DNA of 8,852 nucleotides from a virus (taxonomy: Duplodnaviria > Heunggongvirae > Uroviricota > Caudoviricetes). The notes below the pieces were generated by a model. It did no database searches. It saw only the letters and a list, made by a program, of their open reading frames with translations, and was not told where the DNA came from. Both the position numbers and the translations under genes were made by a program. This document shows, piece after piece, positions 2,321 through 8,407 of this stretch. Position 1 is the first letter of the stretch, and each line of letters starts with the position of its first letter. The stretch lies in IMG/VR virus record IMGVR_UViG_638341087_000017, one strand, 5' to 3'.

Positions 2321-5300
2321 TCAGCTGATACTGATACCTGCTGTGGATTTTTTCATCACCACAACCAGCAGATCGCTGATACTTGCTGTGGGATACCAGT
2401 TATTTACCAGCCATGCTGACACCGAAAACTCCAGCGTCATGTGACCGTGACCGGCAGGCATATCAATAACGCCACTGTAAATCAGCGTATTATCCAGCGC
2501 GGTACGGTTATAAATTTCAGCACCGTTTTTCCGCACTATCAGACGGCATGAGGAGTAAATATCAGTATGCTCTCTCTCATGTTTAGCGCCGCTGAATGCC
2601 ACCGCCGGAATAACAATTTGCCGGTCAAACGGCTGATCGTCATAAACCCTGACGGTAATGGTCCCTGATGGCCACCGCTCCGGTGCACGGGAATCCCGGG
2701 GGAAAGCTTTGCCCACTGTTTTAACGAGATCGCCTTCAATCTGGTTCGCGGACAGTTTTCCCAGAACCCGACAGTTCTCGTTAATCGTGACGTTGTTGAG
2801 CGTCCCGGAATTCGCATTCACGTTACCGCTGATATCAGCATTTCTTGCGGTCAGCCTGCCCTCCGGCGTCAGGGAAAACGTCGGGGGGTTGCCGGATGAC
2901 GTGATACTCACCGCAAACAGTCGCTTCAGGAACACGTCGTTCATGAACAGCTGATTCCCCTGCGCCACAAATAACGGCGTGCTGTTGCCGCTCTCCGGAT
3001 TTATCATCGCGATACGGTCAGCCAGCAGCAGTATGTTGCTCAGTGACTGGCCATCAGTATCCTCAATCCCCGCTCCAATCCCGGCCACATAGGGAATGCC
3101 GTCTTTCGTTTTTTGAACCTTCAGCATGTAAAGTGCAGCAAGGTCATCATTTGTGTCCTTCTGCACGCGCTGTATCTGCTGTATGGTGGCGCTCTGGTCT
3201 TCCAGCGTTTTACTGACCGTCTGTGTGATTTCATTGCGGGTTTCGGTGATGGTGGTCTTCATCTCCGCCATCTCATCCGCAAGCTGGCTGTTGTCTATCA
3301 GCTCCCACAGCCCCTGAGCCAGATGCAGTTTTCCTATTTTTTCCCGAAACAGCCCCAGATACCCTTCTGCATCATTGCTGGCCCGGCCACTGGCTTCCAC
3401 AAAAGCAGATTTCCCCACCAGGTTGACGCTGCGCACGTAAAACCAGAAATCCTTCCCGGGCTTAATGTGCGGGCCGGATACACTCCACTGACTGCCGGTC
3501 CCCAGATAACGGGCAGAGGTTTCCACCTGAGATGTGTCTGCGATTTTTGCCTCCGAAAACCAGAACTCAAACTGTACCGTCGGGTCATACACCGCAAGAC
3601 GCGGGACCGCTGTTATCTGAAAATAGCCCGGTGTCAGCTCAATCGTGGCGGGTACCGCAGGTGCATTAATCCTGAACGTGGTGGTGGCCGGTTCGCCCTG
3701 CTGGCCATAACTGTTAATTGCCCTGACTGTCAGGGTGTATTCCCCGAGCGGCAGACCACTGAAACGGTGCGCCGTGTCTGCGGTGATGGCGGTGGTCACC
3801 AGACGGCTGTCTTCTCCGCTTCCGCTGGTCAGGCGCAGACTGAAGCGCACACCCTTCACCACCCGCGGCGTGTCCCATTTCGCCTGTGCCAGATACTGAC
3901 CGTCAGCCGCGCTCACCTCCACCGTCAGGTGCTGCACTGCCGGCGGGATGACGCTGTTCAGCGAACCGGACAGTGGCTCAAAGCTGGCCCCGTTATCCAC
4001 AATGGCTTCTTTTTCCGGCACATGCTGCACTGCCGTGATGGCAAAGGTACCGTCCGTGTTTTCCCGGATGGAAACACAGCGGAACAGGCGACGACGCAGT
4101 GACGGCAGGGAGAGTCCCCACACACCGTATGTCTCCACGCCATCCGGCAGGGTACTGACCTGTATCCGGTCCGGCGCGGGGTGTGCGGTGATGTCCACAC
4201 TCACCGGCTTACCGCTGCCGTTAATCAGGTTCACCGTGGCGGCACCGGTCTCCGGCAGGGTCACCTCACGGTCCAGTGTCAGGGTGCGGCTGGCGGCATC
4301 GATGGACAGGACACGTCCGCCGGTCATGGTCCCGGCATAGTCGTTATCACAGATTTCAATAATGTCACCGGGTGTGTGACGCAGCCCCTGTGACCCGAGC
4401 GTGAAATCCACCGTCTGCGTTTCCAGCAGTCCGGTCTTTATCACCCACAGCCCGGCACGGTGGGCCTGACCGCGACTGGTGCAACCGAACGCATCCATCT
4501 TCAGCAGGTTGCGCCCGTAGCGCAGTATGGCTTCCGGGTCTTCCACCAGTTCCGTGGAGGTCTGCCAGCCGTTCTGCGGGTCGGTGTAATTCACCTCCAC
4601 CGCCGTGTGGCGGTCCTTCAGGGCGCTGAAGCTGTAGCGAAACCCCACGCCGTTATCATCCACCACCACATCGCAGTTGGTGTACGGCCACACCACATCC
4701 GACGGGCGGTCCTGAACGAACGTCAGCGTCTGGCCGTTCCATACCGGCATACAGCGCATCGCCGAGCAGAAATCACTGAGAACGTCCCACGCCTTACGCT
4801 GTTGTGACAGGTACGCATTAAAGGTCATCCGCGGCTCTGTGCCCCCGAAACCATCCGGGACCGTCTGGTCGCAGTACTGCCCGATGGCATACAGCGCCCA
4901 CTTGTCAACATCCGCCGCCACCAGACGTTTTCCCATGCCGTAGCGCGGGTGAGTCAGCATGTCCCACAGGCACCAGGCCGGGTTGTTGCTGTATGCCGGT
5001 TTCAGGCTGCCGTCCCAGATGCCGCTGTACGTGCGTTTTTCCGGGTCATAGTTTGACGGTACCTGGATGATGCGACCTCGGATATGGTAGTTCACCGTCA
5101 TCTGCTGACCGCCAAACTGCTCCGCATCCACCTGCATCCCCACAATCGCCGTGTTCGGGTAGCACTGTTTCACATCGATGATTTCGGTGTATGACGACCA
5201 GAGCGTCTTATTCTGCAGCTGGTCCGGGGTGCTGTCCGCTGTCTCCCGGACCATCCGGATGTTAAAAGGACGGGGAGGCAGATTATCCAGAATCACCGAC

Positions 5301-5794
5301 GCCAGAAACTGCGAGGTGGTCTTGCCGTTAATGGTGACATCCTTTTCCGTCACCCAGTTACCGTTACGCTGCAACTGAATCAGCAGTCGGACAGAAGAGG
5401 GATTACGGTCGCCCTTTGAGGTGGTCTCCACCAGTGACTGCACCCCGAAGGTGACCCGCAGACGGTCAATGTTCGCTGACGTGATGGTGCGCGTCACCGG
5501 CTTTGCCTTCGTCACTTCCACGCCCAGTGCGGTTTCAGAGCCGGATGACTCAAAACCTTCCGGCGGTGTCTGCTCCTGCTCCCCGGCGCGCCAGACCGCT
5601 GTCACACCATGTATCACAGGATTACCGTCCGTGTCCGTCAGCGGGGTTTTGTTCACCAGGATACTCTGCAGCCCCTTCACCGGACCTTCAATCGGCCCTT
5701 CACCAATGGCGTCAATCACGCTCATCATCTGCGTGGACTTAAGATTGTCCTTTGCCTCTACCGGCGTGTGCGCCTTGCCGCCACCTTTACCCAC
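2321..5794 (-). CDS. J: Tail tip / central tail fibre host-specificity protein J
   Basis: 1157-aa product starting [22 protein letters not shown]... with long stretches that match my memory of lambda gpJ ([100 protein letters not shown]). Start is GTG at 5794-5792, preceded by AGGAGAGGGGG. Size and position (after I, before lom) are canonical. The last ~150 residues differ from my recollection of lambda. Confidence 0.95.
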
Positions 5795-5837
5795 TCTGTC
5801 CCCCTCTCCTGTCTGATGTCTGAATCTGTTTATGCCC

Positions 5838-5869
5838 CAAAAACGACAGGCACCCCGGAGGGTGCCTGT
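5838..5869 (-). terminator. Terminator-like hairpin in the I-J spacer, oriented for the minus strand, ~45 nt upstream of the J start
   Basis: Plus strand 5846-5869: acaggcaccc-cgga-gggtgcctgt, a perfect 10-bp GC-rich stem with 4-nt loop. On the minus strand the stem is followed by CG then TTTTT (plus-strand 5839-5843 aaaaa). Whether it terminates, attenuates or only stabilises RNA cannot be decided from sequence. Confidence 0.45.
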
Positions 5870-6003
5870 GTCATGACGGAATAAAATTTCTGAATTTCTT
5901 CACATTTTCTGTACGCCCCCGTGGCAGATATCATTCCCGGGCGTTACAGTTTTTTCGGGCCAATAAAAACAAAACTCCCTGTGGTTAATCTTCATTTTCT
6001 GTT

Positions 6004-6035
6004 CCCGCAGCCTCCATACACTGCGGGATTTTTTT
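6004..6035 (+). terminator. Terminator-like hairpin in the I-J spacer, oriented for the plus strand (antisense to the tail operon)
   Basis: Plus strand cccgcag-cctccataca-ctgcggg followed by a, then 7 T (6029-6035): 7-bp stem, 10-nt loop, U-tract on the plus strand. It abuts the I stop codon (6043-6041). No credible plus-strand gene lies upstream of it. Confidence 0.45.
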
Positions 6036-6040
6036 ATGCT

Positions 6041-6721
6041 TTACCCCTGCCGCCCGATAACCACCACCTTCCCGCCCCCGCCTTCATCACGGGTGCTGAT
6101 GTCCTGGGAGATTCGCCGGGAGCCAACCAGCATTTCACCGTAAGGCACCGGCATCGGGTTCCCCTGAGCAATCATGTTGTCCAGTGAGGAAAAATACGTG
6201 TTCTGTCTGCCGTTATCCGTTGCGCGGTAATCCGGTGTTTTTGCCTTCGGGGCAAGCATCTGAGCCACACCACCCAGTATCATGCTGGCCCCCAGTGAAA
6301 ACAGCATCGTGGTGGCAGAAAAACCACCGGCTGCCAGGGCTGAACCCCATAACGCCATTGATGCCCCGGCAGTGAAGAAAGAGCCCACGATGGCTGCCGC
6401 CCCCAGCACAATCTGCAGTCCACCTTTTCCGGCCCCGGCCAGTCGCGGCACAATGTGGATGACCGTTCCCTCACCCAGCTGTTCGTGAAGACGGGCGTAC
6501 ACCGCCTCCGGTGCCGTGTCCTCACCGCGAATACGTATCTGGTACCAGCCTTCGTTCATCTGACGGCGGAATCCCGGCATCTGCATCGACAGGGCACGGA
6601 TGGCTTCCGCTGCCGTGTTCACATACAGGCTGAGGCGGCGGCCAAATCGTTGTAAATCCCCGTGAAGGCAGATGCGTGCCAGTGGCGGTGACGCCAGACA
6701 GAATGCGTTCGTCGTTGCCAT
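6041..6721 (-). CDS. I: Tail tip assembly protein I
   Basis: 226-aa product MATTNAFCLASPPLARICLHGDLQRFGRR...IHIVPR.AGA...QIVLGAAAI.GSFFTAG...FSLGASM.LGGVAQMLAPKA.TP...DNG.QNTYFSSLDNM.AQGN..PV.YGEM.VGSR..SQ.IST.DEG.GG.VVVIGR matches my memory of lambda gpI in sequence and length. The ATG at 6721 has an upstream GGGAGAGG. The start overlaps the 3' end of K by 103 nt. Confidence 0.93.
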   Translation of the reverse strand: MATTNAFCLASPPLARICLHGDLQRFGRRLSLYVNTAAEAIRALSMQMPGFRRQMNEGWYQIRIRGEDTAPEAVYARLHEQLGEGTVIHIVPRLAGAGKGGLQIVLGAAAIVGSFFTAGASMALWGSALAAGGFSATTMLFSLGASMILGGVAQMLAPKAKTPDYRATDNGRQNTYFSSLDNMIAQGNPMPVPYGEMLVGSRRISQDISTRDEGGGGKVVVIGRQG

Positions 6722-7362
6722 TTTTCGGAATACCTCTCCCGTTTACTCAGTTGTTCAGGCAGATGGTGAAGCAGTTCACCGTTGCCGCAGTAAATGGCGG
6801 CATGATTGGCCACCGATGCGCCAAAGCAGCACAGCAGGATATCGCCCGCCTGTGCAGAGGACAGGGGCACCCGGTAAAAGCCGGTGACCGCCATATTGTC
6901 CAGGTAAAGGTTCTGACCGTTGCGCCACCAGTCATCCTCACGCTCAAAATCCGGCATATCAATTCCCGCCAGATGGTAGGCATCCCGGAACAGCGTGTAA
7001 CAGTCCGTCACCCCGTGCTCAAAGCGCCGTCCTGTCAGATGTGGCACACAGCGGAATTTATGAATTTCCCCCCGGCAGACCAGCCACCAGGACAGTGCAC
7101 TTTTTATCTGCAGCCGCCGGTCAGCCTCGCTCAGCCAGGGCAGCCCACCGGGATGACTGTGGACCAGTGCCACAATCTCCCCCTGCATCTCTGCCCGCAG
7201 CCAGTCTTCCGGTGCGATACGAAAATACGCCTCCGGCTCTGCAGAAATATTCACACAAGGGATATACCGCTCCCCCTCCGGCGTTCTCACCACGAAGCCG
7301 CACGACTCCGCAGGCGCACACCGCCGGGCATGCGCCAGAATCGCTGATTCTGTCTGTGTCAT
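6619..7362 (-). CDS. K: Tail tip assembly protein K (N-terminal MPN/JAMM-like domain plus C-terminal NlpC/P60-like domain)
   Basis: 247-aa product MTQTESAILAHARRCAPAESCGFV... contains the JAMM signature H-S-H-x7-S-x2-D (VHSHPGGLPWLSEAD) and a downstream Cys/His pair typical of NlpC/P60 (GVTDCYTLFRDAY ... ANHAAIY). Position between L and I is canonical. Start is ATG at 7362, 5 nt after the L stop. Confidence 0.93.
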   Translation of the reverse strand: MTQTESAILAHARRCAPAESCGFVVRTPEGERYIPCVNISAEPEAYFRIAPEDWLRAEMQGEIVALVHSHPGGLPWLSEADRRLQIKSALSWWLVCRGEIHKFRCVPHLTGRRFEHGVTDCYTLFRDAYHLAGIDMPDFEREDDWWRNGQNLYLDNMAVTGFYRVPLSSAQAGDILLCCFGASVANHAAIYCGNGELLHHLPEQLSKRERYSEKWQRRTHSVWRHRHWHASAFTGIYNDLAAASACM

Positions 7363-7367
7363 TGGAT

Positions 7368-8066
7368 TTACTGCGAAAGTTTGTTAATGGAAAGGAAACC
7401 GCCAAAATTAGCCACCATGCCGCGCATCTCACACCCGCGCATGCACTTGCTGCATCTGTCCTTACGGATATCGGTGGTGGGTTTATCGAACTCATCCGCC
7501 ACAGCCCCGCCCGTGTAACCACACTCATCAGAGCGGTAGGTCCACATACAGGTATTCGCCAGCATGATGCGACCGGGAAACAGCGCCCCGTCCGTCTCCG
7601 TCGGTGTCGCCAGCACAAACGAGGCCGTCATGGCCGTCAGCGATGACATCTGCTCCACCACCCACCGGTCCGTCAGCTCCTGCTCAGGGTCTGCCTCAGG
7701 ATTGCCCGCCACAAAATTCACCGCATCCAGAAAACGGGCATACACCCGGCGGCGGACCACCGTGGCCCCCACCAGACTCTGCAGGTCCTCCGCCATCCCG
7801 GTGACAAGGCCAAACAGATTGGACACCGTCAGCGACGGGCGGGCACTGCTGCCCCGGCCGTTCATCTCAAAGCCGCTGCCGTCAATCGGGTATGCCTCAT
7901 ACTTACGCCCCTGCCAGGTGACCGGCTCCCCTTTTTCATTCAGCTCATTACAGAAAAAATACCGCTCACCACCCTGTACCGTCAGGTCGATTTCCCAGAG
8001 TACCACCCGCGGTGACTGCTCTGACTTAACCGACTCGTTCAGACTTTCTTCGCGAATATCCTGCAT
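7368..8066 (-). CDS. L: Tail tip assembly protein L (Cys-rich C-terminus consistent with an Fe-S cluster)
   Basis: 232-aa product MQDIREESLNESVKSEQSPRVVLWEIDL... with a C-terminal cysteine cluster (DECGYTGG...DRCSKCMRGCEMRG). Length equals lambda gpL as I recall it. Position between M and K is canonical. The ATG at 8066-8064 shares a nucleotide with the TGA stop of M. Confidence 0.93.
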   Translation of the reverse strand: MQDIREESLNESVKSEQSPRVVLWEIDLTVQGGERYFFCNELNEKGEPVTWQGRKYEAYPIDGSGFEMNGRGSSARPSLTVSNLFGLVTGMAEDLQSLVGATVVRRRVYARFLDAVNFVAGNPEADPEQELTDRWVVEQMSSLTAMTASFVLATPTETDGALFPGRIMLANTCMWTYRSDECGYTGGAVADEFDKPTTDIRKDRCSKCMRGCEMRGMVANFGGFLSINKLSQ

Positions 8067-8407
8067 CAGTTCACCACCTGCTCAATCGTACAACTGAAAT
8101 CACTGTACCTGGCGTTATCTGTGACGCTCCACTCCCGGCACACCACCCTCACCGTCCGGTTATGTTTCGGCGGTCGCCACAAAAAGGCACGGTAACCACC
8201 ATGCCAGGATAAAAATTCATCCAGCCAGCGCCGGGTTGGTTCATCCGTCACCCGGAACACCGCCTGAAACGTCTTCAGTCTGGCATTAAGTCCCGTCGGT
8301 CGGCGCTGTTCATAACCGTCACCAAACCGAACCCTCACCACCGACGGTTTCTCACTCACCTGCATCCCTTCACGCGGGACCAGATGCAGCGTTTTTATCT
8401 CAGCCAC
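8066..8407 (-). CDS. M: Tail tip protein M
   Basis: 113-aa product containing ...VRVRFGDGY.QRRPTGLNA.LKT.......FL..HGG...FLW.PP...R...V.C..WS.......F..EQVVN, which is lambda gpM-like. Start is GTG at 8407-8405, overlapping the H stop (GTGGCTGA); an in-frame ATG 14 codons downstream is an alternative start. Stop overlaps the L start. Confidence 0.82.
   Translation of the reverse strand: MAEIKTLHLVPREGMQVSEKPSVVRVRFGDGYEQRRPTGLNARLKTFQAVFRVTDEPTRRWLDEFLSWHGGYRAFLWRPPKHNRTVRVVCREWSVTDNARYSDFSCTIEQVVN

Follow-up and report, generated by a model that had tools for sequence, protein, structure and literature searches.

In phage lambda the tail genes I and J are separated by only 60 bp (I end, 15444; J start, 15505), and I–J gaps of roughly 40–55 bp, based on ORF calls, occur in the distant lambdoid tail modules of Enterobacter, Rahnella, and Pantoea. 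In the window analyzed here, the full 8,852-nucleotide stretch of the IMG/VR virus record IMGVR_UViG_638341087_000017, the same two genes lie 246 bp apart (5795–6040), raising the question of what the additional DNA encodes and why terminator-like structures should occur inside a late tail operon. The spacer is bounded by the tail assembly gene I (6041–6721, minus strand, stop codon TAA at 6041–6043) and by gene J, for the host specificity or central tail fibre protein (2321–5794, minus strand), both taken from the ORF list and matching ORF71 (‘tail assembly protein’) and ORF72 of phage BP-4795, respectively. The annotated ends of I and J in BP-4795, which is 98% identical, are the same as those in the window, and the GTG start codon of J at 5794 agrees with the annotations of both E2348/69 and BP-4795. 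A preliminary description had reported a 246-bp spacer compared to about 60 bp in lambda, with two opposing terminator-like hairpins, and both statements were confirmed, as the hairpins are present and stable (fold energies better than those of nearly all shuffled sequences). The hairpin nearest to I, formed on the plus strand, is referred to as hairpin 1 and the hairpin nearest to J, formed on the minus strand, as hairpin 2.

By sequence comparison, the I-proximal part of the spacer is a significant homolog of two small RNAs (sRNAs) that have been described under separate names, PasB and EcOnc22–24. The predicted sRNA gene is antisense to the tail operon and extends from 5956 to 6035 on the plus strand, with the ends set by homology to the 83-nt PasB, while a 5′ end at ~5941–5943 is predicted if the start is set by a TATCAT −10 element. 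PasB aligned to 5962–6035 of the window (79% identity over 77 nt, E = 1e-11, blastn) and EcOnc22 aligned to the window with 77% identity over 71 nt (E = 5e-10, blastn), and the window copy was recovered against the described RNAs with nhmmer (E about 2e-6). A covariance model constructed from 15 other alleles, with the window-type alleles left out, matched 5943–6034 on the plus strand (57.2 bits, E = 2e-10) and nothing else significant in the window. The Rfam 15 covariance models had no match in the spacer (E ≤ 1), and the sole Rfam 15 match in the whole window, a lncRNA at 1686–1790, was judged to be due to chance. Among the explanations offered in the preliminary description was a small plus-strand transcription unit ending at 6004–6035, and this explanation is supported, with homologous spacers yielding an 83–85-nt Hfq-dependent sRNA from the same strand and ending at the same hairpin.

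PasB (pathogenicity-associated sRNA B) originates from prophage PP6 of EPEC E2348/69 (Pearl Mizrahi et al. 2021, PMC8550237), where it is an 83-nt RNA on the minus strand (NC_011601, 1466343 to 1466261; Table S6, PMC8550237). In this genome I ends at 1466255 and J starts at 1466496, placing PasB between the two genes on the opposite strand, and the published PasB Northern probe (AATCCCGCAGTGATCGCGGAGCT; PMC8550237) falls on the tail-sense strand of hairpin 1. The RNA has a BaseMean of 482–1082 in EPEC, compared to 5–15 for the tail genes, is strongly reduced in an hfq mutant (log2FC = −6.8), and has 37 RIL-seq interactions (PMC8550237). EcOnc22, EcOnc23, and EcOnc24 of EHEC Sakai were reported as plus-strand Hfq-CRAC peaks with an ~85-nt Northern band that is destabilized in an hfq mutant (Tree et al. 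2014, PMC4104026; coordinates and probe in Table S2). These map to the I–J gaps of the Sakai prophages Sp15, Sp14, and Sp11, opposite to tail genes carried on the minus strand. The EcOnc22–24 probe sequence is the complement of the strand with hairpin 1 at its end (first 23 nt exact, compared by eye). The published EcOnc22 peak coordinates (NC_002695.1) seem to land on hairpin 2 when read in NC_002695.2, but the two versions are offset in this region by ~+128 bp, as measured with the Northern probes of EcOnc22–24 and EcOnc42, and applying the offset places the peak on the body of the sRNA and not on hairpin 2. The targets of EcOnc22–24 were listed as unknown in a 2021 review, and the function of PasB is described as not established (Zhu et al. 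2026 preprint).

Hairpin 1 is the predicted Rho-independent terminator of the sRNA (6003–6035, plus strand). The stem pairs U-CCCGCAG (6003–6010) with CUGCGGG-A (6021–6028) across a 10-nt loop and is followed by a U7 tract (6029–6035) that leaves 5 nt to the I stop codon, such that the hairpin with a 7-T tract by the I stop in the preliminary description was borne out, with the stem beginning at 6003 and the tract extending to 6035. The predicted fold has an energy of −13.9 kcal/mol (z = −3.65; a single shuffle out of 200 was equally good), and the structure is absent from a simple terminator scan because the loop limit of that scan is 8 nt. Across 17 distinct alleles the CCCGCAG/CTGCGGG stem and the A+U tract are invariant and the loop is variable in both sequence and length (~10–17 nt), while the 3′ end of PasB maps onto the last U of the aligned terminator. 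Judged from the alignment, an invariant stem and U tract, a variable loop, and conserved single-stranded motifs are the kind of constraint typically seen at an sRNA terminator. The motifs in question, AACUCC (5973–5978) and UUAAUCUUCAU (5985–5995), fall in conserved or invariant columns of the family alignment, within a body that is unpaired in predicted folds (5973–5995, plus strand) and is a candidate seed or Hfq-contact region; the seed of PasB has been placed just 5′ of the terminator (Zhu et al. 2026 preprint).

The window allele has diverged from both characterized RNAs, with an overall identity of only 72–75%. PasB has in common with the window the I–J slot, the antisense strand, the CCCGCAG/CUGCGGG stem with a U7 tract a few nucleotides from the I stop, and the motifs AACUCC and AUCUUCA, but differs in the 5′ half, the terminator loop, and the promoter-like site (−10 TATAAT in PasB compared to TATCAT in the window, where the −35 is also poor). 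EcOnc22–24 share the slot, strand, terminator stem, and UUAAUCUUCAU motif, and their spacers are almost identical to that of the window in the half next to J, hairpin 2 included, whereas the central 100 bp have diverged (72% identity over the sRNA). Expression and Hfq dependence have been demonstrated for PasB, and EcOnc22–24 have been detected experimentally (CRAC, ~85-nt Northern band, dependence on Hfq); at this level of divergence the window allele may have other targets or be inactive. Published PasB variants are only a few nucleotides apart (Zhu et al. 2026 preprint), and the window allele therefore lies outside the variants described so far.

A putative sigma-70 promoter for the sRNA is located at 5905–5934 on the plus strand, with a −35 element TTTTCT (5905–5910), an 18-bp spacer, and a −10 element TATCAT (5929–5934). 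In a position-weight scan of the short alleles, TTCACA-16-TATAAT (12.9 bits) occurred at the same position in 12 of 23 distinct short spacers, compared to 8.0 bits for the window-type site with its TATCAT −10 and poor −35, and a strict consensus promoter scan returned none in the window. The predicted start would give an RNA of ~95 nt compared to 83–85 nt in the relatives, and the TATAAT box of PasB predicts a start ~14 nt upstream of the 5′ end derived from RNA-seq coverage, which points to processing of the RNA or to an incorrect promoter assignment. Upstream of this site is an A/T-rich block (5870–5908; sense strand AAAATGTGAAGAAATTCAGAAATTTTATTCCGTCATGAC) that is conserved in all short alleles. 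The promoter-proximal part of the block, AATGTGAAGA(T)ATTCAGA..TTTT (to ~5883–5885), is retained in the 336–344-bp and 903-bp spacer classes that lack hairpin 2, and this part therefore travels with the sRNA promoter and not with the terminator-like hairpin. The 10-bp direct repeat CATTTTCTGT of the preliminary description was recovered at exactly the positions given (5903–5912 and 5993–6002, together spanning 5903–6002, plus strand), with the first copy in the −35 area and the second immediately 5′ of the terminator, and these are the only two copies in the window (0.01 expected). In other alleles only a core, ATCTTCA...TTT, recurs at both repeat positions.

Given the observed sequence features, their conservation, and the homology to two detected sRNAs, the spacer is very probably a self-contained cassette, located within the late tail operon of a lambdoid prophage of EHEC/EPEC type, with a divergent allele of the PasB/EcOnc22–24 sRNA and a separate sense terminator-like element before J. 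We infer the expression, exact 5′ end, promoter, seed, and targets of the window allele, along with the role of the sense terminator. The sRNA gene would extend from ~5943 or 5956 to 6035 on the plus strand, with the promoter-like site at 5905–5934 and the terminator abutting the I stop. The RNA of the relatives is made in the lysogen, when the tail genes are nearly silent, is bound and stabilized by Hfq, and is ligated to many chromosomal and accessory mRNAs, and for these reasons it is most likely a trans-acting, Hfq-dependent base-pairing regulator. Pairing would take place through the pyrimidine-rich motifs just 5′ of the terminator.

It is unlikely that the window allele is instead a decayed, non-expressed relic of PasB, with hairpins that persist because the prophage segment is young and recombining. 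Although the promoter-like site is weaker than those of other alleles, a Sakai allele with an equally weak −35 and an AATAAT −10 nonetheless gives a Northern band, and the 25–28% divergence from the two characterized RNAs has left the terminator stem, the U tract, and both conserved motifs intact. A PasB-2-like copy in Sakai Sp12 is not among the reported CRAC peaks, which would be consistent with a silent relic and suggests that not every allele is detectably Hfq-bound in every condition, but BP-4795 and many genomes of O157, O111, O103, and O121 strains carry the window-type allele itself with 100% conservation.

Hairpin 2 (5839–5869, minus strand) has perfect 10-bp arms (5846–5855 and 5860–5869; stem 5869–5860/5855–5846 in the direction of the tail genes) with seven GC pairs and a 4-nt UCCG loop, followed on the minus strand by CG, a T tract (TTTTT, 5843–5839; UUUUU in the RNA), and GGGG. 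The terminator scan detected the element, its predicted fold has an energy of −25.9 kcal/mol (z = −4.86; none of 200 shuffles was as good), and the perfect GC-rich stem and tail of the preliminary description were reproduced in full, with the distance from the T tract to the J start, estimated there at ~45 nt, measured at 44 nt. The intervening J leader (5795–5838, minus strand) contains, as read from the sequence, a Shine-Dalgarno region AGGAGAGGGGG (5810–5800) ahead of the GTG. In 12 distinct alleles 98.3% of the alignment cells in the stem are paired, compared to 32–48% in slid controls, and the G + T4 that follows the stem does not vary. One compensatory change from C:G to U:A occurs, in five alleles, and as this is the only covarying pair the support from covariation is modest. 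Hairpin 2 is, from this conservation, a sense-strand intrinsic terminator-like element, and its role as a terminator is considered below as a prediction.

A terminator-like structure before J had been considered unexpected in the preliminary description, and this view is weakened because the 60-bp lambda spacer has a comparable sense-strand hairpin (−21 kcal/mol, z = −3.0) and because a spacer of ~240 bp is common among relatives, being the norm in EHEC and EPEC lambdoid prophages. As with hairpin 2, the lambda structure is a GC-rich sense stem-loop with a T-rich run after it, a short distance ahead of the ribosome-binding site of J, but it has an 8–10-bp stem of other sequence and no sRNA cassette upstream. 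On this comparison, lambda and the window have in common an old feature, a terminator-like hairpin before J, and hairpin 2 was probably inherited from a lambda-like ancestral spacer. Late transcription in lambdoid phages is antiterminated by Q and reads through intrinsic terminators. Hairpin 2 would stop RNA polymerase that lacks the Q modification, and Q-antiterminated late transcription would pass into J. In the position-weight scan, the tail-sense strand had no consistent promoter candidate across alleles, including none to feed hairpin 2.

An alternative in which the main role of the spacer is in cis, with the sense terminator (5839–5869) attenuating or processing the late mRNA to set J relative to I and the antisense RNA pairing with the I–J transcript, draws on the strong conservation of hairpin 2, its compensatory change, its position 44 nt before J, and the lambda hairpin in the same place, and the sRNA is by construction perfectly complementary to ~80–95 nt of the late mRNA. 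The read-through of intrinsic terminators by Q-modified polymerase argues against such attenuation, as does the expression of PasB while the tail genes are almost silent, and in the portion of the supplementary RIL-seq tables examined no partner of PasB is I or J, the partners being other mRNAs. Further, the 336–344-bp and sodC spacer classes retain the sRNA while hairpin 2 is absent. A predominantly cis role is quite improbable. As an additional role, the attenuator or the RNA processing or stability element for J put forward in the preliminary description may still apply, through the minus-strand hairpin.

It is very doubtful that the spacer encodes a small tail-sense protein, for which the candidate is a 31-codon ORF (5900–5995; MKINHREF...) with the antisense RNA over its start codon, in the manner of a type I toxin-antitoxin system. 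The ATG is preceded by a purine-rich stretch and lies opposite the conserved sRNA motif, but it is present in only 9 of 23 distinct alleles, being ACG or deleted elsewhere. A 39-codon ORF in the Sakai allele is preceded by a good Shine-Dalgarno sequence (GGAGAG), but the window and Sakai frames diverge after a 5-bp indel. The peptide is not hydrophobic, none of the RefSeq matches has a gene annotated there, and there is no consistent sense promoter; a type I toxin-antitoxin system was rejected on the basis that neither the start codon nor the frame is conserved.

Of 5426 complete E. coli genomes, 786 (~15%) contain relatives of the ~240-bp spacer, with a median of 4 copies and up to 11 per genome, and Sakai carries three allele types. 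Every copy examined occurs in a lambdoid prophage I–J gap, or in the remnant of one (Sp9), and no gene is annotated in the spacer in any RefSeq match. The preliminary description had named a commonplace spacer in which no transcript ends map as the outcome that would speak against its reading; the spacer is indeed common, but transcripts do map there in the relatives. The idea of a miniature mobile element (MITE- or REP-like) as the source of the additional DNA, inserted by chance between I and J, is hardly credible, since the multicopy occurrence and the absence from lambda that would favor it are offset by the lack of terminal inverted repeats or target duplications, by the confinement of all examined copies to I–J gaps (such that copy number tracks prophage number), and by alleles that form a graded mosaic and not a set of identical copies.

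The earlier suggestion of a small inserted element holds only loosely, in that the spacer behaves as a moron cassette, while a repeat scan of the segment returned no terminal repeats or other mobile-element features. The concept of the moron reportedly goes back to Juhala et al. 2000. As judged from its sequence, the spacer has the attributes of a lambdoid moron, being an addition to the late operon that brings its own terminator and a promoter-like site and is variably present among related phages, and the cassette is absent from lambda and from the distant lambdoid tail modules. The likeness extends to known phage-borne morons such as sodC-F1/F2 of O157:H7 (D’Orazio et al. 2008, PMC2569942), as in Sakai Sp10 (ECs_1989) and some IMG/VR loci the same I–J slot is filled by sodC, encoded on the strand of the sRNA, and both are autonomous units within the late operon; the difference is in the cargo, a protein gene in the case of sodC and a non-coding RNA of ~80–95 nt in the cassette.

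Other sRNAs from lambdoid prophages of LEE-positive E. coli, AgvB/AsxR and HnrS (EcOnc10–12), are likewise short, Hfq-associated, and multicopy, and each ends at an intrinsic terminator. These have no sequence similarity to the window, and the AgvB and AsxR Rfam families (cited by Zhu et al.) were unmatched. Both were rejected as identities for the window sRNA based on location, with AgvB/AsxR, the anti-sRNAs, occurring 3′ of PR′ (a moron site) and HnrS having Sakai coordinates between the Rz endopeptidase and terminase genes, as opposed to the I–J position of the window sRNA.

A broader reading, possible but tentative, is that a single sRNA scaffold has diversified within the I–J spacer, which would be a fixed allelic slot, with the RNA possibly also gating J in cis. 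The scaffold would consist of the shared upstream block, the promoter position, the two short motifs, and the terminator, with at least five alleles differing in their bodies. For the cis component, the RNA may pair with the I–J late mRNA at induction and, together with the sense terminator, gate J. If cis gating were true, expression of J, of the tail fibres, and of the effector cargo downstream would be switched between lysogeny and lytic growth, and if the allelic slot were true, several co-resident alleles would provide polylysogens with a combinatorial set of regulators.

The spacer feature is real but largely already explained, since the sRNA family is known and the window adds to it a new allele that had gone unannotated, and the general picture of prophage sRNAs is unchanged, making the result a useful annotation and not a surprise. 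RNAs of the PasB family rank with the more abundant Hfq-bound prophage sRNAs of EPEC and EHEC and yet are absent from Rfam and from RefSeq annotation. Recognizing the window spacer, PasB, and EcOnc22–24 as alleles of one locus joins two literatures that have used separate names, and the window allele widens the family past the near-identical variants surveyed so far, while the alignment marks the motifs most likely to be the seed. As sodC also occurs there, the I–J junction is a recurrent moron slot.

The window covers the distal portion of a lambda-like tail operon, with minus-strand ORFs corresponding to M (8066–8407), L (7368–8066), K (6619–7362), I (6041–6721), J (2321–5794, with a GTG start), a lom-like gene (1655–2254), and, downstream of the latter, a tail-fibre ORF. 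The K and I ORFs overlap by ~100 bp (6619–6721), as they do in the annotation of phage BP-4795, and the actual start of I may be more downstream than that of the listed ORF. BP-4795 is 98% identical to the window and, as its annotated gene ends agree with those of the window, the I-J spacer could be set at 5795–6040 (246 bp). The lambda spacer measures only 60 bp (end of I, 15444; start of J, 15505), and the preliminary description was correct both about the enlargement and in its lambda figure. More distant lambdoid tail modules from Enterobacter, Rahnella, and Pantoea had I-J gaps of roughly 40–55 bp.

The spacer contains a plus-strand terminator-like hairpin (hairpin 1; U-CCCGCAG/CUGCGGG-A with a 10-nt loop, 6003–6028; −13.9 kcal/mol, z = −3.65), followed by a U7 tract (6029–6035) that terminates 5 nt short of the I stop, and a minus-strand hairpin before J (hairpin 2, 5846–5869); both had been proposed from the sequence and both were present and stable. 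One of the four interpretations originally offered for the spacer, a small plus-strand RNA ending at the 6004–6035 terminator, was supported through homology to two experimentally detected RNAs. In enterohemorrhagic E. coli (EHEC) O157:H7 Sakai, three homologous Hfq-CRAC peaks were reported on the plus strand, EcOnc22 (prophage Sp15), EcOnc23 (Sp14), and EcOnc24 (Sp11), along with a Northern band of ~85 nt that lost stability upon hfq mutation (Tree et al. 2014, PMC4104026, Table S2). Their positions in NC_002695.2 fall in gaps between minus-strand genes annotated as ‘tail assembly protein’ and ‘host specificity protein’. The first 23 nt of the Northern probe (GGGAGAGAACGATGAAGATTAAC) match the tail-sense strand directly beside hairpin 1, so the RNA detected comes from the other strand, with hairpin 1 at its end. 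The published coordinates refer to an earlier genome version, for which the probe of the neighbouring sRNA EcOnc42 gives a local offset of about +128 bp; after this correction, the EcOnc22 peak was located on the RNA body and not on hairpin 2.

The second RNA is PasB, an 83-nt Hfq-dependent sRNA of enteropathogenic E. coli E2348/69 (NC_011601, 1466343 to 1466261, minus strand, prophage PP6), with 37 RIL-seq interactions and a log2 fold change of −6.8 when hfq is mutated (Pearl Mizrahi et al. 2021, PMC8550237, Table S6). This interval is between I (ending at 1466255) and J (starting at 1466496) in the orientation opposite to both, and the published Northern probe (AATCCCGCAGTGATCGCGGAGCT) corresponds to the tail-sense strand of hairpin 1 in the E2348/69 allele. 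As slot, strand, and hairpin 1 all match, PasB and EcOnc22–24 represent one locus, and, judged by the spacer, strand, terminator, and motifs that they have in common, the names appear to cover a single family. No EHEC homologue of PasB is given in Table S6 of Pearl Mizrahi et al. 2021 (PMC8550237), ‘EcOnc’ is absent from the text of the Zhu et al. 2026 preprint (a Storz-lab survey), and the equivalence is stated in neither source.

The window spacer aligned end to end with both the PasB and EcOnc22 spacers. The predicted window RNA, which would span 5956–6035 (+) when mapped from the ends of PasB, was 79% identical to PasB over 77 nt (blastn, E 1e-11; 75% globally) and 77% identical to EcOnc22 over 71 nt (E 5e-10; 72% globally). 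A covariance model built from 15 distinct alleles, from which window-type alleles were deliberately excluded, matched the window at 5943–6034 (+; 57.2 bits, E = 2e-10) and nowhere else significantly. By sequence, the window element represents a new allele within the known PasB/EcOnc22–24 family, one that is fairly divergent and lacks annotation.

Spacers were extracted from 77 related loci possessing both I and J and grouped into length classes (234–250 bp, the majority; 295 bp; 336–344 bp; 848–851 bp; and 903 bp). The 17 distinct sRNA alleles compared share an invariant terminator stem (CCCGCAG/CTGCGGG) and A+U tract, with a loop of variable sequence and length (about 10–17 nt). The RNA body retained two short motifs, AA(C/U)UCC and (U/C)(A/G)AUCUU, and was otherwise variable. 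In the window, these correspond to AACUCC (5973–5978, +) and UUAAUCUUCAU (5985–5995, +), both unpaired in predicted folds and both pyrimidine-rich, and thus complementary to purine-rich ribosome-binding sites. The likely PasB seed is immediately upstream of the terminator, and a function for the family was not established (Zhu et al. 2026); we infer that the AACUCC/UUAAUCUUCAU region is a candidate seed.

A position-weight scan identified TTCACA-16-TATAAT (12.9 bits) on the sRNA strand in 12 of 23 distinct short spacers, 65–73 nt upstream of the terminator stem. Window-type alleles have a putative promoter at the same position (TTTTCT-18-TATCAT, 5905–5934, +; 8.0 bits), in the Sakai allele, AATAAT is combined with a poor −35, and a strict consensus promoter scan of the window found none. 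On the sense strand of the short alleles, no comparable or consistent site was present. The promoter box predicts a start ~14 nt before the PasB 5′ end given by RNA-seq coverage, a mismatch that would reflect either trimming of the RNA in the U-run or use of a weaker TAnnnT box closer to the 5′ end. Upstream of the promoter, a 39-bp A/T-rich block (5870–5908) was nearly invariant across alleles; its promoter-proximal part (roughly 5883–5908) was kept in spacer classes without hairpin 2 and therefore belongs with the sRNA promoter. The 10-bp direct repeat CATTTTCTGT occurred where it had been reported, with no further copy in the window. Its core (ATCTTCA, then TTT) is located at 5897–5912, in the block upstream of the promoter, and at 5988–6002, in the sRNA body beside the terminator, with the same two places in the E2348/69 and Sakai alleles; its tail-sense sequence is AAAATG(TG)AAGAT, in two copies ~90 bp apart. 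A 31-codon sense ORF (5900–5995) was rejected because it is not conserved (ATG in only 9 of 23 distinct alleles, with differing window and Sakai frames).

Using megablast, the spacer was matched in 786 of 5426 complete E. coli genomes, at 2997 places (median, 4; maximum, 11 per genome), nearly all chromosomal, and was also found in 148 phage records, chiefly Stx-converting phages. No annotated feature underlay the E. coli matches listed, and a search against Rfam 15 returned no match, even at E ≤ 1. A mobile element was rejected, given no terminal repeats and that all copies examined sit in the I-J gap; HnrS and AgvB/AsxR were rejected as identities because they occupy other prophage sites. 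Short contigs in assemblies labelled as unrelated organisms (Streptomyces flavalbus, L086; Parendozoicomonas haliclonae, L088; and a Clostridiales MAG, L094) carried a tail gene I with 91–98% identity to its E. coli phage counterpart and look like assembly contamination.

The I-J slot behaves like a moron site. The 848–851-bp (L039, L013, L018, L041, L034) and 903-bp (L033, L035) spacers carry a Cu,Zn superoxide dismutase gene (sodC) on the sRNA strand, antisense to the tail genes and upstream of a PasB-like RNA. The same arrangement was annotated in Sakai Sp10 (ECs_1989, L104 5675–6202, between I and J), and these phage-borne sodC genes have been described before (D'Orazio et al. 2008, PMC2569942). 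The usual sRNA promoter and upstream block are both kept in the 903-bp type and absent from the 851-bp type, such that the sRNA of the latter would sit in the sodC 3′ region. Sakai alone possesses three allele types, the EcOnc22 type (Sp11, Sp14, and Sp15), a sodC-linked type (Sp10), and a near-exact PasB (Sp12) with the single change C27A, as in the published PasB-2. The Sp12 copy (L103; spacer 2217392–2217732) has no Hfq-CRAC peak in Table S2 of Tree et al. 2014 (PMC4104026), whereas peaks were recorded for the three EcOnc22-type copies despite their greater divergence; sRNA alleles may differ in expression. A second spacer class (336–344 bp in L010 and relatives, 295 bp in L053, and L103 12393–12733 in Sp12) kept the sRNA, with the J-proximal half, including hairpin 2, replaced by unrelated sequence with a terminator-like hairpin that works in both orientations by sequence (AAACCCCGGTATC...GATACCGGGGTTTCT); exactly this 48-bp piece is missing from one locus.

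Hairpin 2 is a perfect 10-bp inverted repeat followed on the minus strand by CG-UUUUU-GGGG (−25.9 kcal/mol, z = −4.86), and was called by a terminator scan. Among 12 distinct alleles, 98.3% of its cells were paired compared to 32–48% in slid controls, and the G + T4 after the stem was invariant. One pair changed from C:G to U:A in five of the 12 alleles, and as this is the only covarying pair, evolutionary support is modest. The T tract occurs on the sense side only, making hairpin 2 a sense-strand intrinsic terminator-like element. In Sakai Sp9 (L102 1148–1772), a deletion eliminated the sRNA along with K and I in full and a portion of L, leaving a 187-bp gap before J with hairpin 2 still inside. 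The lambda spacer, which could be weakly aligned with the J-proximal portion of the window spacer, has a comparable sense hairpin (AAACCGCC-UGCG-GGCGGUUUU-GUCAUUU; −21 kcal/mol, z = −3.0), for which we know of no described function. After this hairpin (L100 163–190, lambda 15462–15489), a T-rich run closely precedes the J ribosome-binding site. In our reading, the hairpin before J is ancestral and the sRNA cassette is added DNA. Lambdoid late transcription is Q-antiterminated, so hairpin 2 should not block late J expression; in a lysogen, it would stop unmodified polymerase short of J, lom, the tail-fibre genes, and the downstream cargo (type III effector genes in Sakai).
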